IMG/VR virus record: IMGVR_UViG_2775506814_000001
Coordinates: 3,716 to 67,715 of that record
Origin: a virus
Lineage: Duplodnaviria; Caudoviricetes
Direction: 5' to 3' (one strand)
DNA: 64,000 nt
In this document: positions 2,355-38,292 of the stretch, piece by piece
Layout of the letters: each line of letters begins with the position of its first letter
Numbering within the stretch: position 1 is the first letter of the stretch
The notes under the pieces: generated by a model
What the model was told of the DNA's origin: nothing
What the model saw: only the letters and a program-made list of their open reading frames with translations
Database searches by the model: none
Program-made: the position numbers and the translations under genes

Positions 2355-2706
2355 CGCTCACGCCTTCCATCTTCGCCTCAAACTCGACCAGCTGATCGAG
2401 GAGGGTTCCCATGATACCGTGAGGCTCACCCCCTTCACCGCGCGTCATGGCCGGGGCAATGTCAGCCAGTCTGGTGCCGTTCTGAAGGGCGAAAGACAGG
2501 AGGATCGCAGCATCCCGGACATTGATGTCCTGGTCAGTTGAAGGCTTGTGTCTGCCTTTCAGGATGAAGTTGACGAAGACCTCGCCAACCCTGCCATCCT
2601 CATATGTGCCAACAGTGGCCCGAAATTCCGAGCCTTTGCCTTCCGGGTTCGTGTGAACGAAATCGAAGGTCTCGGCATATCGGCGATTGCTCAGTCGTTC
2701 CCGCAT
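2347..2706 (-). CDS. Stand-alone TSCPD / NrdJ C-terminal-like domain protein
   Basis: RERL.NRR...TVGTYEDGRVGEVF...SFALQNG pattern. Confidence 0.75.
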   Translation of the reverse strand: MRERLSNRRYAETFDFVHTNPEGKGSEFRATVGTYEDGRVGEVFVNFILKGRHKPSTDQDINVRDAAILLSFALQNGTRLADIAPAMTRGEGGEPHGIMGTLLDQLVEFEAKMEGVSDA

Positions 2707-2743
2707 TTCGACACCACCAGTTGTTAAGTCACTATTTTGTTGA

Positions 2744-4864
2744 TTATATTGATGCGGCTGCGCCAACACCACCGCTTAATATCTGCGATAGAAACGCTTC
2801 CAAAGGGCAGTGATCTGGCGCGACCTTGGAAAGAAACTGCGACAGGAACGCCTCAAGAGGAGGCACGATGTAGCCGATTTCGGCAAGCATCGCGTATGCC
2901 TCGTCAATGTAGCGCTGGCGATCCAGATCATGAGGAACCGCGAAGTCCCGAGGCATTCGCATCAGAGGTGTCGAGCCATCTGACTTTGAGACCTTGTTGC
3001 GGTTGCCTGTCTTCGCGTGCGGCTTTCCGCGCATGATCGGTGCGCCGTCGGTCGACCAGTAAAAGCGAACTGTCTTGCCGAGATATTCACCCTTCCAGTC
3101 GGCGCCACCCTTCGCTTTTATGACGGTCACAAAACCCCGAACATCGTTATAGGAGTTGACGAAACTCTCGATCGACTGCCCCTTGGTCAGGAACGCCAAG
3201 ACGGCGTCGCCACAGACGGTCATCTTGGGGTTCTTTTTCAACTGCTCGCGGATGCTGTAATCCGGGGAGGACGGATCCCAATGGTTCGCGATTGCGCCTT
3301 TCCGCTTTGCCTTCCCATCCGGCTTGATCGCCACATAGTAGTTCACATCGCGGTTATAGATCGCTGCGTACTCCGCGCCTTCAAGGACGAAGCTGGTGCG
3401 CTGCTCCCACCATTCGATGATGTCCTTGAGGACGCCTCCGGCCGGCCGGTCTTTCCGCATGCCCTGATAGATCGAACGGGGCACCTTCATGACAATGCCG
3501 TCGGTATTCGCCGACACCACTCGAATGCCGTGCTTCTCGGCCCGCTCGATCAGCATCAGCAAAGTGAGCTGCCCGGTCAACGTGGTCGCGATCATCAGAT
3601 GCGGCGCATATAGGATGCTGTAGCGACTGCCGAGCTTGCCATACGGGCCGTTGAGACCGACTTTCAGACCGTCTGAGCGCTGCTTGTGATAGAGTTCGAG
3701 TTCGCGGTCACCCCTGTCTCGCGCAGCATTCGAACGCCCCTTTTCGGCCATGCGCTCGTCTTTGATCCCGCCATAGACCTTCTGGAATTTCGGGCCGACG
3801 GCCCTCGGATATAGACCGAGTTTCAGGATGATCGACGGGTACTGCGATCCCACGTCGACATCGACAAGTTGGCCTTCGGCATCCGAGAACTCAGCGCGGC
3901 ACTTCTCCTGTGAGTGCAGGCCGCCAATGCCGAGTTTGTAGGTCGCCCCGCCGATGGCGATCTTGAATTTCTTGAACTCCTCCGGAAACTTGACCGAACC
4001 CGTCGCTGTGACCTGGATATCGGTATTCCGGATTACGTTTAGGACATCGCGAAGAAGGGGTGTTTCAAACGCGATGAAGTCGGGAACCTGATAGCGGAAG
4101 GTGTAGGCGCCGCGGAACTCGGCTTTCTGAATTCGGCTGCCGGTGATGCGCTCGACACCGGTCTTGATCATGCGCTCGCCAGTTTGCGCGTCGGAAAGCG
4201 ACCGAGCGTCGAAGCCATAGAGTTCCCCGATAGATTCCCGGAGTTCCAGCATTTCCTTGCATGCATGAAAGAGCGCCAGGGTCGCGGGACAGTCCGAATT
4301 CAGGCAGTAGTCGGAAAGCTTGTCCATTTGATCGTGCGTGAGAACGGTCTCAGGCGCGTATGGGAGATCCTGAAGGCGTTCGGAATGGAGACGCCCGGCA
4401 AGCGTCTTGAGGCTCGCGCTTCCGGACGCGAACTGGTTTGAATCCAGTTCGTCTTCATCCCCCTCCGCTGTCTTCGAACCAACCGAGGGATTGGTGTCGA
4501 AAAGGTCGATATGATCGACATACGGCGGGACGATAATCCCGTAGTCGCGCTCGCAGTCCCACGGCTTCAACCGCTTCTTGATAATCGCGTCAGACAGTGC
4601 CTTAAGCTGTGTGTTCGTCGCTCCGGATATGGCATATAGCAGCATCATCATGTCATAGTCGCGGCTATTGAAGCCGACGAACGTGTATTTACGAAGAAGT
4701 TTCCGAACCCTCTGCGGATTAAAATCCGCTCTGTCACTACGTTCGTATGACGCGGTCTGACCGTCTTCTCGAAGAATGCCCACATAAAAGTAGTTTTCGT
4801 AGCATTCTATGTCGAATACTGCGATCGGTCTTTCTGTCTTAAAGCGTTCTGTTCTCGGCGCCAT
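2744..4864 (-). CDS. DNA polymerase, family B-like, with 3'-5' exonuclease domain
   Basis: FDIECY and GFNSRDYD (Exo I/II); DVGSQYP, KVGLNGPYGKLG, ANTDG polymerase motifs; start reassigned to ATG 4864. Confidence 0.9.
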   Translation of the reverse strand: MAPRTERFKTERPIAVFDIECYENYFYVGILREDGQTASYERSDRADFNPQRVRKLLRKYTFVGFNSRDYDMMMLLYAISGATNTQLKALSDAIIKKRLKPWDCERDYGIIVPPYVDHIDLFDTNPSVGSKTAEGDEDELDSNQFASGSASLKTLAGRLHSERLQDLPYAPETVLTHDQMDKLSDYCLNSDCPATLALFHACKEMLELRESIGELYGFDARSLSDAQTGERMIKTGVERITGSRIQKAEFRGAYTFRYQVPDFIAFETPLLRDVLNVIRNTDIQVTATGSVKFPEEFKKFKIAIGGATYKLGIGGLHSQEKCRAEFSDAEGQLVDVDVGSQYPSIILKLGLYPRAVGPKFQKVYGGIKDERMAEKGRSNAARDRGDRELELYHKQRSDGLKVGLNGPYGKLGSRYSILYAPHLMIATTLTGQLTLLMLIERAEKHGIRVVSANTDGIVMKVPRSIYQGMRKDRPAGGVLKDIIEWWEQRTSFVLEGAEYAAIYNRDVNYYVAIKPDGKAKRKGAIANHWDPSSPDYSIREQLKKNPKMTVCGDAVLAFLTKGQSIESFVNSYNDVRGFVTVIKAKGGADWKGEYLGKTVRFYWSTDGAPIMRGKPHAKTGNRNKVSKSDGSTPLMRMPRDFAVPHDLDRQRYIDEAYAMLAEIGYIVPPLEAFLSQFLSKVAPDHCPLEAFLSQILSGGVGAAASI

Positions 4865-4866
4865 CG

Positions 4867-5448
4867 TCAGATGTCGTAACGGTCTGCGTGCCGCGGGTTG
4901 GACGAACCGATGAGAAGCTGCCAGATTTCCGAGACCCACTGCGCCTGATGGAGCGCGTCAGCCAGCGCATTGTGCTTGGTGCCCGTGAAATCCGGAACCC
5001 GATAGCCCTTTGACTCGCCAAGTTCACGAATCGTGCGGCAGTCGCGCACCAACCAGAAATTCCACGGTATTGGGGCATTAGGGCCGAGCACACGATAATA
5101 GGCGTGCTCAAGGATCGTGATGTCGAAATGTGGGCCATTGCCCCAGATCGGGGCCTCCCGATCCAACGACAGGAACGCACTAAGCTTCCCGAGCACCTGC
5201 TCAAGCGGCAGCTTACCGGCAACAGCGTCATGGCGCGCGGCGTCGCTTTGTTTCATCCACCATGCCAGGGTGCGCCCCTCGATAAGCCCGTAGCGAAGCG
5301 CGCTATCCAGATCGACGGTCTCGTAGAACTCTTTCCTGAGTTCACCTGTTGAAGGGCGGAAGAAGCAGGCACCGACGGCAATAACCGGTGCGTTGAACCG
5401 CGTTCCCAACGTCTCGATATCAAGCATGCAATGAACGTCACCCATCAC
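4867..5448 (-). CDS. DEDDh 3'-5' exonuclease (DUF5051/Rv2179c-like)
   Basis: MLDIETLG, WGNGPHFD, RDCRT, HNALADA. Confidence 0.9.
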   Translation of the reverse strand: MMGDVHCMLDIETLGTRFNAPVIAVGACFFRPSTGELRKEFYETVDLDSALRYGLIEGRTLAWWMKQSDAARHDAVAGKLPLEQVLGKLSAFLSLDREAPIWGNGPHFDITILEHAYYRVLGPNAPIPWNFWLVRDCRTIRELGESKGYRVPDFTGTKHNALADALHQAQWVSEIWQLLIGSSNPRHADRYDI

Positions 5449-5469
5449 CGCCTCCAGTGCTGGCGTTGA

Positions 5470-5492
5470 AACGGCGGGTTAGACCCGCCGTT
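5470..5492 (-). terminator. Hairpin downstream of the SSB gene
   Basis: AACGGCGGGT-tag-ACCCGCCGTT perfect 10-bp inverted repeat; only a short U-tract. Confidence 0.45.
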
Positions 5493-5521
5493 GTCACTTT
5501 TTGGTTGAATATCGGCGCAGC

Positions 5522-6268
5522 TCAGATGTCGTCGAACGACCTGCGGCGACGCGGGCGGTCGTCTTCGTCATCGTCGGCAGGCTTGCGGCGACGCGGGCGC
5601 TCGTCTTCGTCATCGTCGATCGAGGACGCGGTTCGACGGCGCGCCGGCTTCCGGTCGAGGTCGTCATCCTCCTCGTCCTCGTCGCCGTAGTCCTCGAATT
5701 CGCTGTCGTCGATGCCGCCGCCCGTGAACTCCTCGTCGCGCTTGTAATACTGGATACCGTCGATCGTCGCGAAAATTCCGTTGCCGCCCTTGTCCTTGTC
5801 GGTAATCGCATAGAAATGAAAATAGGCGATTGCCCAGAACCCGGAAACGAAAAGCTCTTCTGCCTCGTCGGCATCGATTTCTTCGCCCTTCCGGTTGCGC
5901 AACTTGACCTTCTTGTCACTGTTGAGCTTCAGATACCAGGTGTCCTCGTAATGTTCGCGAACATCACCGTCGGGGGTCAGGTTGTCGTCGCCGTCGAAGA
6001 TGGGAAGTCGCTTCGAGTCGAAGGCCTTCAGCAGTCTTTCGGGGTCTTTGCCCGGCCAGCGCTCAGAAATGATGGCATCAACTGCTTCGTCGACGACGGC
6101 CTTATTCTGGCGACCTTCCTTGGTCTTCTTCATGATCAGACCATTGGTCCGATACATGAGTTTGCCGCCCGCCGTCGAAGGCGTCTTCTTCAGGATCTTG
6201 CAGTAGGAAAGGCGAACCAGGCATTTGACAGTGCCGGTGTCGGGATTGAATGAGGGTTTGAAGCCCAT
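5522..6268 (-). CDS. ssDNA-binding protein (DUF2815 / T7 gp2.5-like)
   Basis: VRLSY...FDGD...SG...GIQY; acidic/Arg-rich tail; position between DUF2800 and polymerase. Confidence 0.85.
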   Translation of the reverse strand: MGFKPSFNPDTGTVKCLVRLSYCKILKKTPSTAGGKLMYRTNGLIMKKTKEGRQNKAVVDEAVDAIISERWPGKDPERLLKAFDSKRLPIFDGDDNLTPDGDVREHYEDTWYLKLNSDKKVKLRNRKGEEIDADEAEELFVSGFWAIAYFHFYAITDKDKGGNGIFATIDGIQYYKRDEEFTGGGIDDSEFEDYGDEDEEDDDLDRKPARRRTASSIDDDEDERPRRRKPADDDEDDRPRRRRSFDDI

Positions 6269-6323
6269 CTCAGTTCTCCGGATGATCGATTGAACGGTTG
6301 AGTAGAAGAGCAGATGAGTGCGC

Positions 6324-7541
6324 TCAGTCGTCGACGCCTTCCTCGCCGTAGTCCTCGAAAACGGAGTCGGTCAGCAGCGCGGGCCTCGCGTCCTCCAGTG
6401 GAACGATCACGGGTTGCTGTATGCCTCCCGTAAACAGGAATGAGGGGAATTTCCCCTTTCCGTAGACTTTATCCAGTTGGGCTACGCTAATCAACTTTTC
6501 GTTGATTAACTTGCTCCGCGGAACCCCTTTTCTGACCAGATATCGCTCGGACAGCCCTTCGTCGACGTGAACGCGTTTCGACCGCTTTCCCGCAACAAGC
6601 TTCAGGCCGTATTTGGCGCCATCCCCGAGTTTCACGTCAGCAGATACGGTCTGCTCGATCCGGCTGAGAAACCCTCGCAACGCTGTGAGCCGCATGTAAA
6701 TCGCCGCCTTGCGTTTGACGTTGAGCCCTTCGACCTCCGGGAGTTCGATTTCATCGCCATCTTCAAGCGCGTCGAGATCGTCGAAGTCGATATCAAAGGA
6801 CGACAGGTTCCAGGCCTCATACTCCGGGCAGGCGCCGTCGACCTTGGCAGCCGGACACCATAGACACGCTTCGTCAGACGGTGTGCACGGCGCGTCCTCA
6901 TCGAACGTGAGCGCCGCGCGCGCCTTGACCTCTTCACCGAATGCCAGAAGCTCATCGAGCGTCAAAATCCACTCGCCACCGCCCCGGCCGTTCCTCGGTT
7001 GATCGATGATGAAGCGGAAGACCTTGGCATCCGAGATATGGCGGGCAACGTCATTCCAGAAACCGAGCCCATAGATCGGAACCTGCGGATTTCCAACACA
7101 TGGCACCGCAATGCCGGCACCATATTTCAGGTCACCGATCACAATCTCTTTCCGGCCGACAATCCCACGATCCAGTGTGCCGAGCTGATCGTTGCCGTCC
7201 TCATCCTTGCCGACCCACGGTGTGATGTTGACGCGATACTCGCTAAATCTCTGACCTTCGAACTCGGCCAGCCGATCGAGGCCTGGCTGGATTGCATCAC
7301 ACATCGCCTCGTCGACGACGAAATGATAGCCGTCTGCGGACATGCGACGGCCGAGCAGGTCGTAGGGCTCAAAGCCGAGATTGAAGCAGTAATCGTTGGC
7401 GACCCTGTGTGCGATCGTGCCCTCTGCCGCAGCAAAGCTTGATTGGTCGCTGTTCAGGCCAAGCTTCTTGCACCGGTTGATGGCGCCGGCACATCCCATC
7501 CATCGCTTGGCGTCGGAAGGTGCGTTTCTAGCGTGTGCCAT
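6324..7541 (-). CDS. DUF2800 Cas4/PD-(D/E)xK-like exonuclease
   Basis: HARNAPS..RWM.C, AAEGTIAH, GTLD...DLKYG.G, C.WCPA. Confidence 0.9.
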   Translation of the reverse strand: MAHARNAPSDAKRWMGCAGAINRCKKLGLNSDQSSFAAAEGTIAHRVANDYCFNLGFEPYDLLGRRMSADGYHFVVDEAMCDAIQPGLDRLAEFEGQRFSEYRVNITPWVGKDEDGNDQLGTLDRGIVGRKEIVIGDLKYGAGIAVPCVGNPQVPIYGLGFWNDVARHISDAKVFRFIIDQPRNGRGGGEWILTLDELLAFGEEVKARAALTFDEDAPCTPSDEACLWCPAAKVDGACPEYEAWNLSSFDIDFDDLDALEDGDEIELPEVEGLNVKRKAAIYMRLTALRGFLSRIEQTVSADVKLGDGAKYGLKLVAGKRSKRVHVDEGLSERYLVRKGVPRSKLINEKLISVAQLDKVYGKGKFPSFLFTGGIQQPVIVPLEDARPALLTDSVFEDYGEEGVDD

Positions 7542-7543
7542 CG

Positions 7544-7759
7544 TCAGCCCAACCGTCTGCGTCGTCTGGCGCGAAATCGTTTCCGTGCCTTGTGAGACAG
7601 ATGATATTTCCCGCAGAACCCGCACTTGAAAGTCCCGCAGCCCTTGTGGCTCTTGTTTTCAATCCGACGTGCAACCTTCTTCGCTGTCGCATAGTCGTCA
7701 AAGCCGAATTTGCCTTCGCAGGCTGCGGGCTGGCTGCAGTCAAAGGTTCTCGATGACAT
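7544..7759 (-). CDS. Small basic Zn-finger protein
   Basis: C.GK.GF...FKCGFCGKYHL. Confidence 0.65.
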   Translation of the reverse strand: MSSRTFDCSQPAACEGKFGFDDYATAKKVARRIENKSHKGCGTFKCGFCGKYHLSHKARKRFRARRRRRLG

Positions 7760-8027
7760 ACCAGTCTGCCGCCATGATATCAGCTTGAGACAGTTCGTAT
7801 CCGACCACGCATTCGAGCCCCGTGTCGCTCACGAAGACCGCGTCGATGTGGTCACGTGTCCTGAAGACACATCCCTTTCCGAGATGGGTCACCATCGGCT
7901 CGAATGATGCCTGCACTTCACGCCCAGGCATGAAGACGAGAAATTCAGGATTGCGCTTTGGATGCCAGATGCGACGCGCCACGGCGCTACCCGTTCGCAT
8001 TGTCTCCAGTGCGGCCTGAAAGTTCAT
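7740..8027 (-). CDS. DUF2829 / Tad2-like anti-Thoeris protein
   Basis: MNF..AL....G..VAR..W ... SQADIMAADW family signature. Confidence 0.8.
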   Translation of the reverse strand: MNFQAALETMRTGSAVARRIWHPKRNPEFLVFMPGREVQASFEPMVTHLGKGCVFRTRDHIDAVFVSDTGLECVVGYELSQADIMAADWYVIENL

Positions 8028-8121
8028 GTGAGCCTCCGTGAGGGCATTGAGGAAACGGGCATCGCCCGCTTTCTGAATGCCCCCGGCCAACTGTAAGAGC
8101 TGGCCGGGAACATGAAACGGC

Positions 8122-8580
8122 TCACATGCCGTCGTCATCGCCCTCGTCATCGTCGGACGGCTCGGGGGTCAGGCGGCCTTCCTCCTTCTTCTTCTTGACC
8201 CATGCCACGACACGGTGAAGCTCGGCGGCCGGGACATCCGTGATGGTCGCATCCTGCTTCTTCAGCATCGCAGCGAGCGCCTTCTTGAGCGCGGCAGAGC
8301 GGGCCTGCGGCTCGGGGTCCTTCTCGTTGTCCTCGAACTCGGAGATCCACTCCAGAGCGAAGTCCTTGACCTCCTGGTGGGTCGGGCCGTCGTCGGACTC
8401 CTTCGTCGAGGCCGACTTCCGGCTGCGCGTCGTCTTGGCGGGCTTGTCGTCGGAATCATCACCGCTGGACTTGGTCGAGGCCGCCTTCCCACCGGACGCC
8501 GCGGCGAGCAGCTTTTCCAGGAGGCTGTTGTTGCGTTCCAGAAGCTCGTTGTTGGTCTGCAGAAGCTCTTCGAGTGCCAT
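8122..8580 (-). CDS. Hypothetical protein (coiled-coil N-terminus, disordered linker, acidic tail)
   Basis: SD AAGGA upstream; first gene of the leftward replication operon. Confidence 0.8.
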   Translation of the reverse strand: MALEELLQTNNELLERNNSLLEKLLAAASGGKAASTKSSGDDSDDKPAKTTRSRKSASTKESDDGPTHQEVKDFALEWISEFEDNEKDPEPQARSAALKKALAAMLKKQDATITDVPAAELHRVVAWVKKKKEEGRLTPEPSDDDEGDDDGM

Positions 8581-8738
8581 TGCGGTTCCTTTCAGGGTGA
8601 CATGGCGTTTCACAGCGTGTGCGCCGAAGCGCGGGCACTGACTTGATCACACATCTCGGTTGTCTGGTCAACTAAATATTGACTAAACGAGCGGCGGACC
8701 GTAGCTTGCACGAACGACGCAAGCACAGAGGATTCCAC

Positions 8739-9035
8739 ATGTCTGCGGAACAGAGCGAGGAAGAAGACCTCTCCCTCCACGACCTCATCATGAAAGCCCT
8801 CCCGGAATTCCAGCGCGGCGAGGGCGACGGGGCGAAGCTTGACGTCTACAGGCTCGCAACCGCGCTCGATGTCAGCGCGGAAGCCCTCTACAAGCGATTC
8901 CGGACAGGCCACCCGCAGGAAAACACGATCTCTGTGCGGCTCGCGCGGCGCATCGAGCGGCTGTCTGCGGAAAGCGCGAAGGTGAACAACCATGCGCCGG
9001 TTCTGGCGTCCGCTTTCCAGCGCTTCTTTGTCTGA
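8739..9035 (+). CDS. Cro-like HTH transcriptional regulator
   Basis: LATALDVSAEALYKRF helix-turn-helix; divergent gene upstream of primase. Confidence 0.75.
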   Translation: MSAEQSEEEDLSLHDLIMKALPEFQRGEGDGAKLDVYRLATALDVSAEALYKRFRTGHPQENTISVRLARRIERLSAESAKVNNHAPVLASAFQRFFV

Positions 9036-9091
9036 TCGATTCGACTGACCAGCGCTTCGGACCTGCCCGTAACCCCTGACTCGGGGCAAGT

Positions 9092-11614
9092 ATGCTCGAC
9101 TCCATTCGACAGCTCTGTGAAGAAGGTTTTGCCATTCACTGGCTGTATCCGCGTGCCAAAAACCCGATCGGTGACGATTGGGCCGCAAAGCCCGTGGCGA
9201 GCTTCGAAAAGCTCAAGCGATCGTACCGGCAGGGGATGAACGTTGGCGTCCGCCTGGGCAAGTGGTCGAGGATCGGCGACCTCTATCTGCACGTCATAGA
9301 CCTCGACATCCGCGACGCGTCACTGAGCGATGAGGCACGCGCCGAACTGCGCAAGATGATCAGCGAATTTGAGGATCTGCCGTCGGTCATTTCCGGGTCA
9401 GGCGGCGAAAGCCGTCATTACTATTTTCTGTCCGAAGAGGCTTTCCCGCCGAAAAAGCTTGCGCATAGCGCCGGTAAGGTCCTGGGCAAAGATGACAAGA
9501 AGCATTGGGCGTGGGAGATCGAGCTTTTCGGCACCGGCAAGCAGGTCGCGATCCCGCCGTCGATCCACCCCGATACCGGCAAGCGCTATCGTTGGGAGCG
9601 TGAGATCGACTTCGATGCGATCATTCTCGGTGTCGGCCCGGTCGTCGAAGCTGATCGCATTCGCGAACTCATCGGGCGCGAGCGCGAGATCGACATCCAG
9701 AGCGGCGACGGCGAGGATCGTTCGAAACCGCTTGGACTGACGGTCAGCGAAATCCAGCACACGTTGAAGGGGCTGCCGGTTGAATACTGGCGGGACGATA
9801 GGGAAGGGTGGTTGACCGTCGGATTTGCCATCCACCACGAGACCGGTGGCAGCCAGGAGGGATTTCAGCTCTGGCGCGACTTTTCGGCATCGTCGGACAA
9901 GTTCGACACATCTGATCAACGGCGCGTCTGGAAATCATTCCGGAACAAACCCCGGCCGATCCGCATGGCGACGCTCATGACGGCGGCGCGCGAAGCCAGG
10001 CTTGAGGCCGAATTCGAGAACCTCGACGATGCCGAAGACGACGAAGATGACTTCGATGATCTCGACCGGCCGGCAAAGCCAAAACCCAAAAAGCCGGACT
10101 ATTCGTCTGTCCTCGGAGGACCGCGCGACGCGGAGCCCGAGGAAGAGGATGACGCAGACGACTCAGACGACGAGGACGTTCCGCCTCGTGTCGTAAAACT
10201 GCGAAAGGCGGACGTTGAAGCCGAGCTTGGACATGTGCCGCCGAAGGTCAAGCGCATGAACGCCAAGCATGCAATTGCCTTCGTCAAGGGCAAATGCGTG
10301 ATCATCACCGAGCACGACGACGGAACAACCTCCTACGGCACACAGGCCGACCTCCACGCCTGGTATGAGAACGACCGTGTCGCGACGGAAAAGAGCACGG
10401 AACCGGTTTCCAAGGCGTGGATGCGCCACAAGAAGCGGCGAGACTACCCGAACGGCGTCGTCTTCGCGCCAGGTCGCGACGTTGCCGGCGCCTATAACCA
10501 TTGGAAGGGTTTCTCGGTCATCCCGAACAACAAGTACTCGTGCGCGCTATGGCTCGCCCATCTTCGGGATGTGATCTGCAGCGGAGACGAGACCAACTAT
10601 CGCTATGCGCTCGGGTGGTTTGCGCATCTGGTCCAGCGGCCGGAAGAAAAGCCCGGTGTCGCGATGATCCTGCGCGGCAAGAAGCGGATCGGCAAGGATA
10701 CGATCGCTGACTACTTCGCCAACATCATCACGCACCATCGCGTCAAAATCGCGAACCAGGACCAGTTGGTTGGGAAGTTCAACGCCCATCAGGAAAAGTG
10801 TCTCTTCCTCCATGTCGAGGAAGGCTTCTGGGCTGGTAACAAGAACGCCGACGGCGTTCTCAAGAACCTGATCACCAGCGAGCAGGTGCTAATCGAGCCG
10901 AAGGGTATCAACCCCTTCAACGTCGACAGCTGTCTACGCCTCTTCATGTCCTCGAACGAAGAATGGATCGTGCCTGCGACCGCGGATGAAGGGCGCTATT
11001 TCGTGCTCGATGTCTCGGAGGCGCGACGCAACGATCACGTCTATTTCGCCGCTCTCCGCAAGGAGATGAAGAACGGCGGCCCGGAAGCACTGCTCTGGTA
11101 TCTGCAGCACTACGACATTAGCGATTTCCAGGTGCGCAAGGTGCCGAACACAGCGGCCCTGACGCAGCAGAAGCTGGCAGGACTCAAGAACCTCGACCGC
11201 TGGTGGTTCGAAATGCTGGACACGGCCGATCTGTCGTTCGAGCACTACGTGGCTGGAGGCAGGACCGCCGACTGGTCATCGGACCACGTGCATGTTGACC
11301 GTGACGACCTGTTCGACTCCTACAATCGCTGGATCCACGGGCGCCGCTACGATGGCGACGCACTGAGTGGGCCTCTGCTCGGCAAGCGTCTGCAGGAGAT
11401 CATCGGCGACAAGTTGCAGGCCTGCTACCCGCGCCGCGGCAAGTCGCGCATCCGCCAATACATCATCCCGCCATTGGAGATCTGCCGGCGCGCGTTCGAG
11501 CGTTATCTGAACTCGGAGATCAAATGGGATGTCCCCGCCAAGGTCGTCGATGCTGACGAGCTGGACGAGGACATGGATGACGAATACGACGATCTCGATC
11601 AGGACAAAATGTGA
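9092..11614 (+). CDS. Primase-polymerase / PriCT-2 / DUF5906 NTPase (primase-helicase)
   Basis: Prim-pol (VIDLD, HYYF, VAIPPSIHPDTG), PriCT-2 (WLTVGFAIHH), Walker A GKKRIGKD. Confidence 0.92.
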   Translation: MLDSIRQLCEEGFAIHWLYPRAKNPIGDDWAAKPVASFEKLKRSYRQGMNVGVRLGKWSRIGDLYLHVIDLDIRDASLSDEARAELRKMISEFEDLPSVISGSGGESRHYYFLSEEAFPPKKLAHSAGKVLGKDDKKHWAWEIELFGTGKQVAIPPSIHPDTGKRYRWEREIDFDAIILGVGPVVEADRIRELIGREREIDIQSGDGEDRSKPLGLTVSEIQHTLKGLPVEYWRDDREGWLTVGFAIHHETGGSQEGFQLWRDFSASSDKFDTSDQRRVWKSFRNKPRPIRMATLMTAAREARLEAEFENLDDAEDDEDDFDDLDRPAKPKPKKPDYSSVLGGPRDAEPEEEDDADDSDDEDVPPRVVKLRKADVEAELGHVPPKVKRMNAKHAIAFVKGKCVIITEHDDGTTSYGTQADLHAWYENDRVATEKSTEPVSKAWMRHKKRRDYPNGVVFAPGRDVAGAYNHWKGFSVIPNNKYSCALWLAHLRDVICSGDETNYRYALGWFAHLVQRPEEKPGVAMILRGKKRIGKDTIADYFANIITHHRVKIANQDQLVGKFNAHQEKCLFLHVEEGFWAGNKNADGVLKNLITSEQVLIEPKGINPFNVDSCLRLFMSSNEEWIVPATADEGRYFVLDVSEARRNDHVYFAALRKEMKNGGPEALLWYLQHYDISDFQVRKVPNTAALTQQKLAGLKNLDRWWFEMLDTADLSFEHYVAGGRTADWSSDHVHVDRDDLFDSYNRWIHGRRYDGDALSGPLLGKRLQEIIGDKLQACYPRRGKSRIRQYIIPPLEICRRAFERYLNSEIKWDVPAKVVDADELDEDMDDEYDDLDQDKM

Positions 11615-13213: not shown

Positions 13214-13457
13214 CGTTGACCACCGTAATGCGCTCTAGCTCATTTTCGAGCATGGAAGTGACGAAGTTGGCAATGACCATGGCCTGATCGCTACCAACGG
13301 TATCCTCGAGTCTTACATAGGCTTCGGCAGAATGCTCTGGGACCATGTGAACATCGTCGATACGTTTCTGGCGTGCCTGCATTTCTTCCAGGTACTCCGC
13401 CTCTCTACGCTCCCGTGCCTCACGCTTGCGCTGGTTGGCATAGAAATTCTTTCCCAT
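13197..13457 (-). CDS. Hypothetical protein
   Basis: ATG 13457 downstream of the structured RNA region. Confidence 0.6.
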   Translation of the reverse strand: MGKNFYANQRKREARERREAEYLEEMQARQKRIDDVHMVPEHSAEAYVRLEDTVGSDQAMVIANFVTSMLENELERITVVNDASAQ

Positions 13458-13477
13458 GGGCGACGACCTTCTCAAGA

Positions 13478-13628
13478 AAATGGGGACGCCAGTTTTCACC
13501 AACGCCCCCTAGTTTGCCGATCTGGGAGGACCGGGGATTGCGCGGGGTGTCGGACGGGCCACTACCTCCCGCCCGACGCGTTCGGTTAGTGTGACCGAAC
13601 CCCCCTGCTCGGACGCCCGTACGGGCGA
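13478..13628 (-). ncRNA. Candidate structured RNA downstream of tRNA-Lys
   Basis: Four consecutive hairpins, including a GAAA-tetraloop stem. Confidence 0.4.
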
Positions 13629-13631
13629 ATA

Positions 13632-13708
13632 TGGTAGACACGCAGGGACTCGAACCCTGGACCCCCGATTTAAAAGACCGGTGCTCTAACCAACTGAGCT
13701 ACGTGTCC
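13632..13708 (-). tRNA. tRNA-Lys(UUU)
   Basis: 77-nt cloverleaf: acceptor GGACACG/CGTGTCT, anticodon arm CCGGT-CTTTTAA-ATCGG, TTCGAGT T-loop, encoded CCA. Confidence 0.95.
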
Positions 13709-13729
13709 TCGTCACAATGAGGTGGACCC

Positions 13730-14155
13730 GACTATGCCGGGATTACACACTGTTCGGGGGTCCGAACAGTGCGACCACTCTGCGATGGACCCTCTCGGGA
13801 GATGATTACCCGACGTATCCCGAGACCGTCAGAACCACCGCATTCCGTGTTGCCCATACGGGCGAAACTGACGATCGGCGGTAAGCGCTCCACATACCGT
13901 TGCCGCACGCTTTGTTGGTTGCTCCATAGCCGCCGCGTGCACCGATCTTTCAGGCGGGACGGTCGGAAGTCCTACTAAGACGGTACGTGAAAAGGAGGTC
14001 GATCCCCACGTACCCAACCGACCGTTGACCCCACTCCTGAACCCGCTGTTGCGACAGAAACACCGGTTCCCCGGAATTCCGCCCGCCGTGCTGTCAGGCC
14101 CTTGGCCGCTCCAGCGGGTGTCCGCACACTCGCAACAACTGTCACGACCATAGTC
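13730..14155 (-). ncRNA. Candidate large structured ncRNA upstream of tRNA-Lys
   Basis: Closing stem 14149-14155/13730-13736 and nine nested 6-10 bp stems (see findings). Confidence 0.55.
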
Positions 14156-14362
14156 ACCTTTTAGTTGACTGTCAACCGTGCGTGGACTGCTCGACCAAGT
14201 GATTTCCATTTCTAGACCGGCCGGCAAATTCTAATGCTCGCGCAGCCTCTTGAGCCGATTTCCATGGGGCCAACCGGCCACCCCCGAATATCAACTCGTG
14301 CAATTTCTGCACACGCTCGATGCCGAAATCCCGGCCTCGAAACAGTAAGAGTCCGTTATGCC

Positions 14363-14699
14363 TGGTCTAGGTGGTGCAGGCAGCAAAAAGCTTGCCTAGA
14401 CCACTTTGCCACCGTTAACACTATGATTTCACGTAAAAATTTTAAGTGGTCTAGGTGGTCTAGGTGGTCTAGGTGGTTTTTCCCAACAACGTGCAAATGT
14501 TTCTGACTTGCCACAATTCAATTTCTGTCCGTTATGCAGCATGATGCCACTTCCATCTTGTGCGCGCGCGTATAGAAACTGCCTAGACCACCTAGACCAC
14601 CTAGACCACCCGTCTTTTCTCTAATAGGAATAAGGGGTTAAGTGGTGCAGGCAAACTCAATTTTGGTCTAGGTGGTCTAGGTGGTCTAGGTGGTCTAGG
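14363..14699. repeat. Cluster of 9-bp TGGTCTAGG iterons in both orientations (probable replication origin)
   Basis: 14 copies: 14363, 14372(var), 14395(rev), 14447, 14456, 14465, 14582/14591/14600(rev), 14643(var), 14664, 14673, 14682, 14691; AT-rich spacers. Confidence 0.85.
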
Positions 14700-14845
14700 C
14701 AGTTTCTGGACTTACGATCAGTCCGTTGTGCGTGTTCGCCATAATTTCGTCACAAGTAGCACAGTCTCGCCTTATTTGCCCGCAGTTTGCCATAATGCAG
14801 GGGTGTGAATAGGAAAATTTCCCTAAAAATTCTCGCGTTCATGGG

Positions 14846-14888
14846 TCTCGGCGCCCCCGCGCACGACGAAAATCCCGAAGAAGGACCC
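14846..14888 (-). other. cos site: cosQ-like GGGTCCT plus putative 12-nt cohesive end GGGGCGCCGAGA
   Basis: Minus strand ACGGGTCCTT...GGGGCGCCGAGA...GAAATTTTCC parallels lambda ACGGGTCCTT...GGGCGGCGACCT...GAAAATTTTCC; the phage has a lambda-type terminase. Confidence 0.75.
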
Positions 14889-15105
14889 GTAGCGACCTGC
14901 ATTTGCAGGCTTTTTCCGACATAGCACAACGGACGCCAACAGAGAGTGAGCACAACGGACATTGACTTAATTCCTATGCATGGATCATGGATGCGGTATC
15001 ATAGTACCGTATGTCCGTATTGCCACGGTAACCGGTTACCACATTAACCATTACGGAACCGAAACGATTCATGCGGTAACCACATACCACATACAACGGA
15101 CGCCA

Positions 15106-15144
15106 GGGCTTCCCCTGGTCGAGGGCTTCCCCTGGTCGAGGGCT
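15106..15144. repeat. 17-bp tandem repeat AGGGCTTCCCCTGGTCG x2
   Basis: Direct reading. Confidence 0.8.
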
Positions 15145-15197
15145 GACGGTCGGCGGGAAACAGGGCTGACCAGGCCATGCGAAAGCGAAGTGACCAA

Positions 15198-15237
15198 TCA
15201 ACTAAATGTTGACTGCACAACGGACACTCTTTATAAA
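15198..15237 (+). promoter_or_regulatory. Sigma70-type early promoter overlapped by the 15-bp operator
   Basis: TTGACT(15209)-17 bp-TATAAA(15232); TCAACTAAATGTTGA at 15198-15212 overlaps the -35. Confidence 0.75.
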
Positions 15238-16996: not shown

Positions 16997-17026
16997 AAAT
17001 CAACTAACTCTTGAGGAGTCCAACCT

Positions 17027-17704
17027 ATGGCAACGTGGCATCAATCACACAACCGGACAGGCCTTGCAGCGCTTTACCGTTCCGAGCCCGGAGTCTGGAA
17101 AGTGATTTCCGACAAGCCCGATGAATTCGCAAGCGCTATAGCCTTCAATAACCCGGAAGACGCAACGGCGCTTGCGGCGAAGAACGGCGGCCTGATCGTT
17201 ACGCCGTTGGCCAAGCCGGAAGACACGCCAGCGTGTAAATTCACAGTTCTTGAGCAACACGACTGGCATGGGCGACGCGGATATGTCGGAATCAACGAGT
17301 CGCAACGCCTTTACGTTATTCCGGCCGATGGCGGTTTTTCCTGCCTTGGATTCGACGTTGCCGAACGCAAGCGCCAAGCCGTTTTGAAATGGCTAGCCAA
17401 GGGCGCTCTGACTGTCACCGTGGGAACGGCGCTTGCGTATGAAGCCTATCTTGAGGCGATGGAAGCCGGCCGCCGTTATTCAGAGCGGTCCGGTTTGAAA
17501 TGCCTCGCCAACCTGACTCCCGCTCTGACGGGGCTTGAGGGGAGGCGCGTCGCCCTGGTCGACAAGTCCGGGCAGGAAATCGAACGCTTTTACGTGTCCC
17601 GTTCGGGCGGATGGATGCCGGTTCATATCGCCTTGAAGCGCCGTAATTCGTCAGGCGGTTGTGCGGTTTACATGCCAGACGGCGCAACCGTCCGAACGAT
17701 CTAA
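17027..17704 (+). CDS. Early hypothetical protein
   Basis: SD GAGGAG; C-terminal RFYVSRSGGWMPVHI...SSGG domain. Confidence 0.8.
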   Translation: MATWHQSHNRTGLAALYRSEPGVWKVISDKPDEFASAIAFNNPEDATALAAKNGGLIVTPLAKPEDTPACKFTVLEQHDWHGRRGYVGINESQRLYVIPADGGFSCLGFDVAERKRQAVLKWLAKGALTVTVGTALAYEAYLEAMEAGRRYSERSGLKCLANLTPALTGLEGRRVALVDKSGQEIERFYVSRSGGWMPVHIALKRRNSSGGCAVYMPDGATVRTI

Positions 17705-17756
17705 CCGCGTCCGACTAATCAACAAAAACTTGAAAATCCAATCTGGGAATAGACCA

Positions 17757-18773
17757 ATGCAAAACACTGCAATCACCAATGACAACGCGGCCCTCTTTGT
17801 CGGCGCGCCCGTCTATAGCCGCAACCGGCAAGGCTATGTCACCGCGATCCGGGAACGGACGGCGCAAACCTTCATGATCGGCCGCAACATGCGGGAAAAT
17901 CACTTTGACGTTGATATCGCCTGGTGCGATGGCACATTTGCGGAACTGCCGGACGGCATGGTCAATGACTATATCGAAGAGGCCGCACGTTGCCGCATGA
18001 CGCCTATCAGCGAAGGCGAGGCGCGTGACATGTTGGCGAATGCCAAGGCCGAAAAGGCGCGCCAGCAAGATCGCGCAAGGGCTGACGCGGAACTGACACG
18101 GGAAGCCTACAAGATTTTCCGGGAAGATGCGGCACGCCGTCTGCCGGCATGGGCAAAAGCGGTCATTGTCGCTGAGCACGTCACGGACGACTCCGACACC
18201 ATGTCCGACTATTTCGCCAGCAAGAAGGGGCGCACGATCATTCTCGCCTTTTCGAAGTCAACGCGCGACCTGTTTCCGGAATTGCGCAACGCGGCCTTGA
18301 ACCATGCCGAAACCGCGCATCTCGCCACGGCGCCCGAAAATGCCGAACATCGCGAAAAGTGGAGCATGGGCGCCGGCTATTACCTCAAGGTCGGCGGACG
18401 CCATTCGACCGGATGGCAAATTCGCAAGTTGGGACTCTATGACAGGGGCGCGGACAATATCCCCATGGGCGAATGGTCCCTTGCCGAAGTCGCCGCGCCC
18501 GCGCCGGTCCAAGCCCCGGCAGATGAACCGGACGCGCCAGCTGCCGGCATGACGATTGAAAAGCACATCCACACAAAGAAAGGATTCGATATGTGGGTTG
18601 CCGTCATGTCGGAACGCGTTGACCGCGACACCTATGACTCCCTTTTGGACAAGGCGCGCGACTTCCGGGAATGGCTGGAATCTCACAACAGTTATTGCGA
18701 GGAAATCGACGCGGGCGCCTTCAAGGAAAGCGGCACGGGAGTCGCGACCTGCCTTGTTGTGATCGATCAATAA
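17757..18773 (+). CDS. Polyvalent/anti-restriction-like protein ending in a methyltransferase C-terminal remnant
   Basis: DSDTMSDYF...EHREKWSMGAGYYL domain; C-terminus FREWL...GAFKESGTGVATCLVVI. Confidence 0.7.
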   Translation: MQNTAITNDNAALFVGAPVYSRNRQGYVTAIRERTAQTFMIGRNMRENHFDVDIAWCDGTFAELPDGMVNDYIEEAARCRMTPISEGEARDMLANAKAEKARQQDRARADAELTREAYKIFREDAARRLPAWAKAVIVAEHVTDDSDTMSDYFASKKGRTIILAFSKSTRDLFPELRNAALNHAETAHLATAPENAEHREKWSMGAGYYLKVGGRHSTGWQIRKLGLYDRGADNIPMGEWSLAEVAAPAPVQAPADEPDAPAAGMTIEKHIHTKKGFDMWVAVMSERVDRDTYDSLLDKARDFREWLESHNSYCEEIDAGAFKESGTGVATCLVVIDQ

Positions 18774-18795
18774 TCAACCAAAAGGTGACAATGCA

Positions 18796-19047
18796 ATGAC
18801 ACGCTATGTCTTGAACCGCGACCTGACAGTGACGTTTCGCGGCTATCCCGTGTCCGCCAAGAAAGGCGCACCGTGCACCATGCTTCGTGACGGACTCGGC
18901 AATCCCTGTTTCGCTATCCGGCGGGTTGCGTGCGACGCGGGCGCCATGGGCAAGGCGGGGACCTGGTCAATCTTCGGACATGACTCGAAATACTTTTACG
19001 TTTGGGTGCCGTCCGACGCGGTTAGCGAGGAATCAGACAATGCCTGA
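18796..19047 (+). CDS. Early hypothetical protein
   Basis: Repeat-embedded SD. Confidence 0.7.
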   Translation: MTRYVLNRDLTVTFRGYPVSAKKGAPCTMLRDGLGNPCFAIRRVACDAGAMGKAGTWSIFGHDSKYFYVWVPSDAVSEESDNA

Positions 19048-19543
19048 ATTCATCCTTGATACATCCAACGCGGCGAAGGAATGGCGCGACCTTTCCGACT
19101 TCGCCAAGGGCTTTATTGAAGCGATGTACTTTTGCGACCAATCGCCAGCCTATGACATGGCCGATTGGTTTTCCGAAGAGACGCAAGAGGCGGTCCGGGA
19201 AGGTCAATCGGACGGTGAAATTCCGTCGGACGCGGGAGTCGAGCATTTGCACCCGGACGCTATCCGGGACATTGCCAAATTCTGCGAGGCCTTCGAGACC
19301 AAAGCCGCGGACTTGCTGGCGAAAGCCTATGACCGCGAGGACTATGACTCCGAGCAAGCCGGACGCGACCTGTATTTCACATATGCCGGGCATGGAGTCG
19401 GGTACTGGTCGCGTGAGCAACTGGAAGCCGAAGGCCTTGGCGAGGCTTTATCCACGGCATGCGGGCGCGGGGAAGTCTGTTCCTTTTTCGGCGGACATGT
19501 CGAGCACGGAGACGCGCCGTTTGTGCACGTCTCCGTATGCTGA
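19040..19543 (+). CDS. Early acidic hypothetical protein
   Basis: SD GAGG; AGRDLYFT..GHGVGYW motif. Confidence 0.75.
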   Translation: MPEFILDTSNAAKEWRDLSDFAKGFIEAMYFCDQSPAYDMADWFSEETQEAVREGQSDGEIPSDAGVEHLHPDAIRDIAKFCEAFETKAADLLAKAYDREDYDSEQAGRDLYFTYAGHGVGYWSREQLEAEGLGEALSTACGRGEVCSFFGGHVEHGDAPFVHVSVC

Positions 19544-19567
19544 AACTCAACTAAAAGGTGATCAGCC

Positions 19568-19888
19568 ATGAAATACGGTTATAGCCCGCGCGGCATGCCC
19601 GCGCGATACATGGACGGCGCACCCGCGATCGTTCGGCGCTCGATTATAGACATGCTCAAGATTGAGCCGGCCGGGCCCCTTGATTTTGATATCGTGTTCC
19701 GGCCGGATCGGACGGACTCGGAAATCACGGGCTTGGACTTTGACAAGGGCGGTTGCCAAGGGTGTCATTTCTTCCTGAAACCGCATGAGGCGCGCGCCTA
19801 TCGCGAGAAAAACCGCCGTCGGCGCGTCGCCTGGTCGGACCTGCCGAAGGAAACGCAAGGCGCGATTCTGGCATATCTCGAGTCCTGA
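19568..19888 (+). CDS. Early hypothetical protein
   Basis: Repeat-embedded SD. Confidence 0.75.
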   Translation: MKYGYSPRGMPARYMDGAPAIVRRSIIDMLKIEPAGPLDFDIVFRPDRTDSEITGLDFDKGGCQGCHFFLKPHEARAYREKNRRRRVAWSDLPKETQGAILAYLES

Positions 19889-19951
19889 TGACTTCCCTTG
19901 AACGGGCGCGCGGTCTAGTGCGCCCGTTGCGGCGAATCCATCGGAGTCGTT

Positions 19952-21154
19952 ATGCAAGAGCAAATCTCATTATCCGGCAAAGCCGGAATTCCGACGCGAT
20001 ACCTAAACCGGCATTGCCTGATCACGGGCGCCACGGGAACGGGGAAGACGGTTTCGTTAATGCGGCTTGCCGAGCAATGCGCACGGCAAGGCATTCCCGT
20101 TTTTACGGCCGATATCAAGGGCGACCTGTCAGCGCTTGCCCGTTCATGCATGGTGCGCTTTCTGGATCCGTTCGGGCAGGGGAAGGGCGACGCGGTTGCC
20201 GTTCCTGTTGCCAGTTTCGGAGCGCCAGCGCTTGCCCGCATTTGCGGCTTGTCGCCTATCCAGTCCGACGCGTTGGCAATCGTGTTTCAGGTCGCGGGCG
20301 CCATCGGCGCGCCCCTTGAAACGTTGAGCGACTTGCGCGCCGTTCTTCGGACCATGGGCACAACAGCTGGATTGAGGGACTCCGACTTCGGCCACGTGTC
20401 GCGCGGCACAATCGGCATTCTGCAGCGGACCGTCACGGCGCTTGAGACTGACGGCGCGGCTTCACTGTTCCGCGCACCCTGTTTCGACGTGGCGGACCTA
20501 TTGGCGCCTCGCGTTTCCGTCCTCACGGCGGATCGGCTGATTCAATCCCCGCGCACCTATGCGGCTTTCCTGTTCTGGCTGTTGTCGGACCTTTACGAAC
20601 GGTTGCCGGAAGTCGGCGACCTGGACGCGCCCCGCCTGGTTTTCATTTTCGACGAAGCGCATTTGCTTTTTGAGGACGCGCCGCGCGCCCTGGTCGACAA
20701 GCTGGCGCAAATGGCAAGGCTGATCAGGTCCAAGGGCGTTGGCGTTGTCTTTGCCTCGCAATCCGCCGACGACATACCCGACACCATCCGCGCGCAGCTG
20801 GCGACGCGGATTGAGCATAGCCGGGAATTGCCGATTGGCACGGCGCGGGTCCGCACGTTGGATCAAGCCGGCCGGCCGGTTGATGCGGGCGCCGTCCCAA
20901 TCGATATGCCGGATTGCCCACTAGGTGCCCTTGAGGAGGGCGAGCGCCCCATGCCCGCGCCGATTGATCAGGCGGACACGCCCCGCGCCCCATGGGCGGC
21001 TATGGGCAAGAGCGAGGCCGCGCTATTGGGCGTCATCCTCGCGCTAGTCGGCGCGGCGGGATTCGGTGCCTTGACGGCATGGCAAAGCGGATCGGCCGGC
21101 AAGCTTGCCGTGATCGCGGTTGCCATCATTGCGGCGGGGTTGGCGCGCCGCTAA
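19952..21154 (+). CDS. HerA/DUF853 (YjgR-like) P-loop ATPase with two C-terminal TM helices
   Basis: NRHCLITGATGTGKT, ADIKGDLS, LPEVGD, FIFDEAHLLF, RLIRSKGVGV. Confidence 0.85.
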   Translation: MQEQISLSGKAGIPTRYLNRHCLITGATGTGKTVSLMRLAEQCARQGIPVFTADIKGDLSALARSCMVRFLDPFGQGKGDAVAVPVASFGAPALARICGLSPIQSDALAIVFQVAGAIGAPLETLSDLRAVLRTMGTTAGLRDSDFGHVSRGTIGILQRTVTALETDGAASLFRAPCFDVADLLAPRVSVLTADRLIQSPRTYAAFLFWLLSDLYERLPEVGDLDAPRLVFIFDEAHLLFEDAPRALVDKLAQMARLIRSKGVGVVFASQSADDIPDTIRAQLATRIEHSRELPIGTARVRTLDQAGRPVDAGAVPIDMPDCPLGALEEGERPMPAPIDQADTPRAPWAAMGKSEAALLGVILALVGAAGFGALTAWQSGSAGKLAVIAVAIIAAGLARR

Positions 21155-38288: not shown

Positions 38289-38292
38289 CGAA

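Follow-up and report, generated by a model that had tools for sequence, protein, structure and literature searches.

A hairpin-rich non-coding stretch beside a prophage tRNA-Lys(UUU) gene, possibly the long 5′ leader of a self-contained transcription unit

Usual tRNA leaders are far shorter than 433 nt, the length of the stretch that we discuss here, and regulatory fragments derived from tRNA spacers exist, for example the 3′ETS of leuZ in E. coli. Two large RNAs, GOLLD and ROOL, are often located near tRNAs and in prophages, according to the parts of PMC5737381 that deal with their context. Regulatory RNAs processed by RNase P are known as well: the relevant part of PMC5499578 describes the CI RNA of satellite phage P4 and the C4 RNA of P1/P7. 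Phage tRNA-Lys variants can rescue infection from a defence system that cleaves tRNA-Lys, as in the case of T5 and PARIS (PMC11464382, in the part concerning these tRNAs), and the stoperators of cluster A mycobacteriophages are repressor sites spread over the phage genome (PMC9283540, in its part on these sites).

The DNA analysed here, referred to as the window, is a stretch of 64,000 nt (positions 3,716-67,715 of IMGVR_UViG_2775506814_000001), in which all coordinates below are given. It is part of a 5.45-Mb bacterial genome and is mostly prophage. The prophage codes for a family-A DNA polymerase, exonucleases, a Gp2.5-like SSB, methyltransferases, an 840-aa prim-pol/D5-like helicase and a small terminase subunit; the integrase lies beyond a tRNA-Pro. 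An initial annotation described positions 13730-14155 as a large multi-branched RNA next to a tRNA-Lys, possibly of a new class, and stated that phage ncRNAs such as GOLLD and ROOL are often found near tRNAs, a premise that is correct, for tRNAs and for prophages, as far as the account in PMC5737381 goes. The candidate lies inside the main intergenic control region of the prophage, which is non-coding over 1.5 kb (about 13460-14980). The right half of this control stretch (14350-15230) is a dense control- or origin-like region, with arrays of two to four 9-bp iterons in both orientations (all eight genome copies are in the control region) and six exact copies of GTCCGTTRTGC. The iteron arrays are about 200 bp from the hairpin-rich stretch, and no copy of either the 9-mer iteron or GTCCGTTRTGC occurs within 13709-14141.

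We propose, with moderate confidence, to read the stretch as a long non-coding 5′ leader that belongs to a self-contained, moron-like, operator-controlled transcription unit for a phage tRNA-Lys(UUU). The tRNA-Lys gene (anticodon UUU, positions 13632-13708, minus strand) was identified with ARAGORN and scores 71.4 bits with the Rfam tRNA model. It is an extra copy with an encoded CCA end, whose acceptor and anticodon stems are not those of the host tRNA-Lys(UUU); the leader reading is supported by the fact that this tRNA is genuine, additional and unlike that of the host. The leader itself (13709-14141, minus strand, 433 nt, that is, the candidate trimmed to its predicted start) is hairpin-rich and non-coding, and ends at 13709, with the bona fide tRNA directly 3′ of it on the same strand. 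No terminator-like site is predicted on the minus strand between 14147 and 13709. Co-transcription of leader and tRNA, followed by release by RNase P, would therefore be reasonable, since the same strand runs from a promoter-like site to the tRNA with no terminator-like site between them. As in other tRNA precursors, the leader is contiguous with a same-strand tRNA, with a promoter-like site at one end and the putative RNase P site at the other, and a structured trailer and a terminator come next; the density of perfect hairpins, on the other hand, is unusual for such leaders.

The promoter-like site, TTGACA-17 nt-TATGGT (14175-14147, minus strand), agrees with the consensus at 10 of 12 positions, and TTGAC-N17-CTAT has a single occurrence on both strands of the 64 kb, where 0.14 are expected; like the terminator discussed below, it was called as a consensus match only. 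The predicted transcript start is at about 14141, some 7 nt past the -10 element. The closing stem of the initial annotation (14149-14155/13730-13736), whose arms are indeed complementary, would be outside an RNA that begins there, because the arm 14149-14155 lies on the -10 hexamer. The spacer of the promoter holds an exact copy (16/16, positions 14153-14168) of TCAACTAAAAGGTGAC, a quasi-palindromic, operator-like 16-nt motif that contains the SD-like AAGGTGA. When up to three mismatches are allowed, the window contains 20 copies of this motif (0.19 expected); with a limit of two mismatches the genome has 15, of which 14 are in or right beside the prophage. Its orientation tracks the direction of the genes, most copies being between the stop and start codons of small ORFs. 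We read the copy at the leader start as a putative operator within the promoter; since the spacer carries an operator-like motif present in 20 copies, the tRNA unit is probably under the control of the phage's own regulator. The spread of the motif is similar to that of the stoperators of cluster A mycobacteriophages, a likeness that is in layout only. It speaks against the leader reading that the motif is elsewhere an RBS-like junction, 1-6 nt before a start codon, and that here too an ATG follows after 1 nt.

Downstream of the tRNA, a trailer of 122 nt (13510-13631, minus strand) contains three or four hairpins (z -1.80), the first of which, GCCCGTACGGGC, is a near-copy of the leader hairpin 13852-13866; in a local alignment, 8 of 500 shuffles score as high as this leader/trailer likeness. 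The trailer is followed by an intrinsic-terminator-like hairpin (13509-13482, with a T-run to 13472, minus strand) that has 12 pairs, a GAAA loop and then ATTTTCTT. The next gene has its ATG at 13457, so that its RBS and start are about 15-25 nt past the T-run, and the listed promoter-like site at 13475-13446 would start transcription inside this downstream ORF. Taken from the sequence, the minus-strand layout would thus be that of a self-contained unit made of promoter-like site, leader, tRNA-Lys, trailer and terminator-like hairpin. The 10/12 promoter-like site, its core unique in 64 kb, and the terminator-like hairpin past the tRNA all argue for the leader reading.

The ten arm pairs listed in the initial annotation are complementary, with 75 Watson-Crick pairs, 2 G-U pairs and no mismatch. 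The G-U pairs are on the minus strand, as had been claimed, and none is G-U solely on the plus strand, the only correction being that the "several" of the annotation are two. Besides the closing stem, the pairs form a 10-bp stem (14130-14139/14045-14054), a stem at 14036-14041/13949-13954 that encloses 14018-14025/13959-13966 and 14007-14014/13982-13989, a stem at 13940-13947/13873-13880 that encloses 13935-13940/13905-13910, the stems 13868-13873/13827-13832 and 13818-13825/13793-13800, and the hairpin 13748-13771. The latter is the strongest single hairpin, with a 10-bp perfect stem (12 bp on the minus strand) and a 4-nt loop; it lies about 40 nt upstream of the tRNA and its z is -4.80 (minus strand) or -3.45 (plus strand). 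If perfect hairpins are counted as maximal inverted repeats free of mismatches (8 bp or more, span up to 110 nt), 13730-14155 holds six of them; 1000 dinucleotide shuffles have 0.54 ± 0.76 on average, and not one gets to six. Among the 426-nt windows slid across the 64 kb, 3 of 636 (0.5%) reach six hairpins, and all three are in the iteron region (14301-14601).

Unlike the fold energy, this hairpin count is exceptional. The minus strand of the candidate does fold better than shuffled sequence (-192.9 kcal/mol, z -3.34, none of 100 shuffles as good), and so does the plus strand (-168.8 kcal/mol, z -4.08, none of 100). Forty control windows of 426 nt, spread over the 64 kb and compared on the minus strand with 18 shuffles each, reach z ≤ -3.3 in four cases and z ≤ -2.9 in six, the iteron region being one of them. 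Because 4 of 40 controls fold as well, and because the z of the candidate itself varies from -2.9 to -4.3 with the shuffle set and the chosen ends, the energy excess is real yet locally unexceptional. These controls, together with a plus strand that folds equally well, count against the leader reading. The trimmed leader (13709-14141) has an RNA fold of -196.5 kcal/mol (centroid -192.8, z -3.44); the internal domains are kept and the fold closes by another pairing near the tRNA. The three-way domain at 13949-14041 (minus strand, 93 nt) has a z of -2.96 and a centroid identical to its minimum-energy fold, and the domain near the 5′ end of the leader has competing folds. Domain by domain, neither strand is consistently ahead in z. 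The one measure in favour of the minus strand is ensemble diversity, which is 47 there, compared with 114 ± 34 in shuffles (none of 40 lower); for the plus strand, 3 of 40 are equal or better. The excess of hairpins (6 vs 0.54) and the well-defined fold of the minus strand argue for the leader reading. It is nevertheless an objection to it that an ordinary tRNA leader needs neither 433 nt nor six perfect hairpins, so that the excess is unexplained by that function.

The initial annotation held that no convincing protein is encoded, and this is borne out: with either a host-trained or a phage-trained codon table, no frame has positive codon log-odds in about 13460-14980, while the flanking phage genes are positive. 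The ORF of 58 codons at 13975-14151 (or to 14157, minus strand), located behind the RBS-like motif, was re-examined because the motif has an SD-like AAGGTGA with an ATG 1 nt later. That it is a small protein gene, or the decayed remnant of one, has in its favour a 16/16 copy of a motif that stands ahead of start codons elsewhere, followed by an ATG after 1 nt; it is also the ORF whose protein-like conservation (13975-14157) the initial annotation had named as a possible refutation of the RNA, and no such conservation is seen among 5.8 billion proteins. Its GC3 is 0.48 at 64% GC and it scores -0.39 with the host table and -0.25 with the phage table, below the seven motif-linked small ORFs (69-114 aa), whose GC3 is 0.64-0.80 and whose scores range from +0.05 to +0.57. 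It has no relative among the 5.8 billion proteins, where its own genome does not contribute a gene call for it either, an overlapping ORF of 132 aa has no Pfam or PHROG match, and the product, with its many V, G, A, T and R residues, resembles an out-of-frame translation of GC-rich DNA. On the basis of its GC3, its negative codon scores and the lack of a homologue, we rejected this ORF as a gene, and a protein-coding origin of the stretch seems to us very improbable. The absence of a coding frame in about 13460-14980, together with the GC3 of the 58-codon ORF and its lack of a homologue, is a further argument for the leader reading.

No match to 13709-14350 was obtained by blastn in 50,697 phage records, and no homologue of these positions in 60 relatives, 26 other genomes of the same family and 5 related viral records. 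When the phage records were queried with 8 kb, and 72,556 plasmid records with 1.6 kb, the matches listed were to the tRNA alone, the sole exception being one 133-nt match in the DUF1643 gene region. In its own genome, the region matches only itself. Three matches of 25-35 nt in 400 genomes of the same order, and nine of 22-48 nt in 400 genomes of the same class, were read as chance. A single-sequence covariance model of the domain 13949-14041 scores 117.6 bits on its own source and has no match among 150 relatives and 5 viral records, a hairpin pattern has three matches in metagenomes, with unrelated flanks, and a scan with a 26-nt tRNA pattern gave none. As for the neighbouring genes, the DUF1643 protein retrieves one locus (43% identity) without the tRNA, and the prim-pol two genome-contig loci (49-50% identity), also without the tRNA and with no similarity outside the gene; a 101-aa reading of a neighbouring ORF has no match in viral contigs, and an 86-aa neighbour has no relative except itself among 5.8 billion proteins. 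The 33 viral stretches found by scanning for an iteron 20-mer include none that is similar to the leader.

A scan for the 16-nt motif retrieved at least 113 stretches, 11 of which, among the matches listed, share further DNA with the window, and it is in this way that the provirus G812 was found. G812 is the closest relative among the matches listed, with about 69% identity in replication genes, and is syntenic with the window at 28-11600, 14573-14899 and 17000-21000, that is, on both sides of the region. It has no counterpart of 13460-14350, and no tRNA-Lys in the 19 kb examined. On L012, a viral contig that was called unrelated, the same 9-bp iteron arrays adjoin a homologous primase-helicase gene (tblastx E 6e-49). 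Neither G812 nor L012 has an extra hairpin-rich non-coding stretch beside its repeat arrays, which suggests that the leader travels with the tRNA as an inserted cassette and does not belong to the origin. A self-contained promoter-tRNA-terminator unit that is missing from the nearest relative is reminiscent of phage morons, an argument that rests on one relative, G812. The leader reading draws support from this absence and from the specificity of the motif for the prophage.

The Rfam comparison that the initial annotation had suggested (Infernal cmscan, 4227 families of Rfam 15) detected no family at E ≤ 10 inside 13761-14155. These families, which we take to include GOLLD, gave no GOLLD match in 13300-14900 at E ≤ 10. 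ROOL (RF03087, a model of 574 positions with a threshold of 99.1 bits) has no match in the genome at E ≤ 10, nor in the window or in 13300-14900 by cmscan at the same E value; control genomes are unmatched too. A YrlA match of 20.6 bits, compared with a cut-off of 69, overlaps the tRNA and was rejected, as were weak matches to miRNA families, which fall on the iteron palindromes. The leader is like GOLLD and ROOL in being located in a prophage, beside a tRNA, with a predicted multi-branched fold of several hundred nucleotides; it differs in that it matches no Rfam model and is found in one genome so far, and it is shorter than ROOL, whose average length is given as 581 nt in the part of PMC5737381 that concerns it. 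The shared tRNA and prophage context is no evidence of membership in either class. Hence, of the large structured RNA put forward in the initial annotation, the non-coding character, the location on the tRNA strand and the well-defined fold stand, and nothing shows a new class comparable to GOLLD or ROOL; the case for such a class is weak.

In function, the closest analogies are ordinary leaders of tRNA precursors and the RNase P-processed RNAs of P4 and P1/P7. The resemblance to the CI RNA of P4 and the C4 RNA of P1/P7 lies in the setting, a temperate element that has an iteron origin and codes for a P4-alpha-like primase-helicase, and in the arrangement, a long untranslated leader with a seemingly regulated promoter and an RNase P substrate that adjoins it. 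In contrast to those systems, a complete tRNA, anticodon included, would be the RNase P substrate here, the operon that follows is not the replication gene, the leader has no sequence or Rfam similarity to theirs, and no repeated complementary target boxes were found in it. The signals that come closest to target boxes are one 10-nt complementarity between leader and tRNA and one 15-nt repeated hairpin motif. Regarding the tRNA, T5 (PMC11464382, in the part on T5) offers a parallel, the tRNA-Lys(UUU) of the prophage being different from the host copy in the anticodon and acceptor stems. This tRNA-Lys fits the use of tRNA-Lys in counter-defence, by analogy, which would bear on the cargo of the cassette and not on the leader; as to the latter, no counterpart in T5 is known. 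The T5 tRNA belongs to a cluster of tRNAs.

Within a hairpin of the 13949-14041 domain, GGATCGACCTCCTTT (14005-13991, minus strand) resembles the 3′ tail of the host 16S rRNA: the minus-strand sequence GGAUCGACCUCCUUU is that tail with one inserted base. There are six matches to the 16S tail on both strands of the 5.3-Mb chromosome, two of which are the real 16S genes. Read on the plus strand, the same bases spell an extended Shine-Dalgarno sequence, and no start codon is near enough to be served by it. This likeness is a post hoc observation and may be a relic. A derivation of the leader from a 16S-ITS-tRNA region was rejected, as the similarity is limited to the 15-nt motif and the 15-nt match to the 16S tail, and so was the idea that the 75-nt module 13873-13947 is a decayed tRNA, the similarity again being limited to the 15-nt motif (whose score is reached by 8 of 500 shuffles). 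The spacing is similar to that of the 16S-ITS-tRNA region (283 vs 292 nt), an unsupported parallel.

Three other explanations deserve to be weighed against the leader reading. An independent structured ncRNA of an unseen class, which would form the 5′ part of the tRNA precursor, be released by RNase P and act in trans, would account for the hairpin excess and the well-defined ensemble on the minus strand, on which both G-U pairs are also found. Such an RNA would have the location beside a prophage tRNA that is given for GOLLD and ROOL (PMC5737381, in the same part), and the precedent of the RNase P-processed RNAs P4 CI and P1/P7 C4 (PMC5499578, likewise); moreover, the 15-mer that resembles the 16S 3′ tail lies within one of its hairpins. 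We nonetheless judge it unlikely, given that there is no Rfam match and no BLAST homologue in phage, plasmid, family (26), order (400) and class (400) genomes or in 5 viral records, and that the covariance model of the best domain has no match other than its own sequence. The z values have no strand preference and are larger with DNA parameters, and G-U pairs number no more than 2 among 77; in addition, the global closing stem is at odds with the promoter and the 5′-end domain has competing folds. The more specific idea of a new ncRNA freed by RNase P from the precursor of a counter-defence-type tRNA-Lys, acting in trans by a hairpin that mimics the 16S tail as an anti-Shine-Dalgarno sequence or by its other domains, is quite improbable in our opinion. 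Such an RNA might, for example, titrate the highly conserved RBS-junction motif of the phage or its binding factor, or control read-through into the leftward operon. Much the same reserve applies to a cis-regulatory leader for the leftward operon (13457 to about 11600), in which the RNA, alone or together with the tRNA, would decide on read-through of the terminator (13509-13482), in the manner of processive antitermination RNAs or of the leader-based termination control of satellite phage P4. The downstream gene is indeed 15-25 nt past the T-run, none of the promoter-like sites found could serve as its own, the promoter of the tRNA unit carries the phage operator-like motif, and the leader hairpin has a perfect 10-nt complementarity (13754-13763) with the anticodon-stem/variable region of the tRNA (13659-13668). 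This proposal is, however, purely architectural, with no homologue and no known antiterminator family matched, and by our estimate 10 nt is roughly the length of match to be expected by chance when 1.7 kb are searched. Duplexes of the leader with the terminator/RBS region are not above shuffles (160 of 200 equal or better) in a scan that allows unlimited loops and is ill-suited to the question, and the same scan against the tRNA, the trailer and the motif is for this reason uninformative.

Some of the observations that weaken an RNA function speak for a DNA-level element, in which the palindromes would act as hairpins, cruciforms or protein sites of the neighbouring origin/control region, for example as places where the prim-pol/helicase of the phage primes or unwinds, and the RNA fold would be incidental. 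The hairpins could act as DNA, since the plus strand folds equally well and since DNA parameters give the 433-nt leader z values of -5.0 (minus strand) and -4.1 (plus strand), larger than those of RNA and similar on both strands; 75 of the 77 pairs are Watson-Crick. The iterons are about 200 bp away and their arrays adjoin the homologous primase-helicase gene in L012, and the phage has its own DNA polymerase, SSB-like protein, exonucleases and prim-pol. Yet the ten stems have no common arm sequence and are therefore not repeated binding sites, no repeat of the control region occurs inside 13709-14141, and L012 and G812, whose origin regions are similar, lack the hairpin-rich stretch. This stretch is, moreover, bounded exactly by the promoter-like site and the tRNA. 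We regard a DNA-level role as unlikely for these reasons.

According to the leader reading, which we prefer, the host RNA polymerase would start near 14141 at a sigma-70-type promoter whose spacer carries the operator-like motif. The 433-nt RNA would fold co-transcriptionally into about six local hairpin domains, a cut by RNase P at 13709/13708 would free the tRNA, and the trailer of about 120 nt and the terminator at 13509-13482 would end most transcripts and shield the downstream operon. The role of the leader would most likely be in cis, as the stable structured 5′ end of the precursor and as a regulated entry point, and probably not that of an independent ribozyme-like RNA.

If the stretch is a spacer only, it is an ordinary, though unusually long and hairpin-rich, leader of a prophage tRNA, and the value of the present analysis is that of a bounded claim. 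Should it have a function as RNA, it would stand as an orphan case of a large phage ncRNA that arises through tRNA processing, beside a tRNA-Lys of the kind that defeats tRNA-cleaving defence systems. It may be that the control region as a whole, with its shared iteron origin and its 20-copy operator-like motif, is more informative about the regulation and the replication of the prophage.

The 16-nt quasi-palindrome TCAACTAAAAGGTGAC occurs 20 times across the window at up to three mismatches, against 0.19 copies expected (examples are the copies at 837, 5493, 12132, 12817, 14153, 15930, 16218, 18774, 19547 and 33974). The motif is specific to the prophage, its orientation agrees with the direction of the genes, and most copies lie in the gaps between small ORFs, with a stop codon on one side and a start codon on the other. 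Palindromic variants of it, TCAACTAAATGTTGAC, overlap the –35-like elements TTGACT at 8668, 15198 and 24761. In its layout, and only in its layout, the set of sites resembles the stoperators, the repressor sites that are spread over the genomes of cluster A mycobacteriophages.

The control region has operator-like sites of a second class, with the sequence GTCCGTTRTGC: six exact copies, three on each strand, are present between 14351 and 15225, and one of them is contained in the spacer of a promoter-like site, TTGACT-17-TATAAA, at about 15208–15236.

The same region carries arrays of a 9-bp iteron, GGTCTAGGT, at 14364–14699, with two to four units per array in direct and inverted orientation; all eight genome copies of the 17-mer fall within this segment. 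The same iteron arrays are found in an unrelated viral contig (L012, 44% GC), where they adjoin a primase-helicase gene homologous to that of the prophage (tblastx E value of 6e-49 against 10454–11146). The arrays are probably the replication origin of the phage, bound by the prim-pol/helicase.

In the closest related provirus that was found (G812), of which a 19-kb piece (L174, G812:C1:44000–63000) was examined, positions 8800–9800 of the piece form a control region of its own that is very dense in hairpins and repeats: a stretch of 426 nt holds as many as 11 perfect inverted repeats of 8 bp. This control region has only two short segments in common with the window, 14573–14644 and 14812–14899, and the 19 kb contain a single, degenerate copy of the 16-nt motif. 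Other segments of the window stand out as well. Those at about 5301–5826 and 38001–38426 each contain five perfect hairpins of 8 bp, and the three that begin at 20801, 22401 and 28801 have fold z-scores between –3.7 and –4.2; these three coincide in part with long ORFs and seem to be coding at least in part.

Within the hairpin-rich leader of the prophage tRNA-Lys(UUU), the minus strand of 13991–14005 reads GGATCGACCTCCTTT, which is the 3' tail of the host 16S rRNA with one inserted base; the plus strand reads as an extended Shine–Dalgarno sequence without a start codon. This site is 283 nt from the tRNA, close to the 292 nt that separate 16S from tRNA-Ile in the host rRNA operon; beyond this similar spacing, no further likeness was found between the two stretches. 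Outside the window and the rRNA operons, the 16S 3' tail recurs in the host chromosome as an exact match of 15 nt (G000:C1:3646747), whose opposite strand is a perfect extended Shine–Dalgarno sequence.

A 15-nt motif, TTCGCCCGTAYGGGC, with a GCCC-N4-GGGC hairpin, occurs twice on the minus strand, directly 3' of the tRNA (13615–13629) and inside the leader (13852–13866); in an alignment test, 8 of 500 shuffles reached as high a score. The tRNA itself (13632–13708) is unlike the host copy (G000:C1:2428321–2428396) in its acceptor stem, D-loop and anticodon stem, and in the databases it is matched best, at 82–86% identity, by tRNA-Lys genes from large enterobacterial phages. It may serve the prophage as a counter-defence or codon-supply tRNA.
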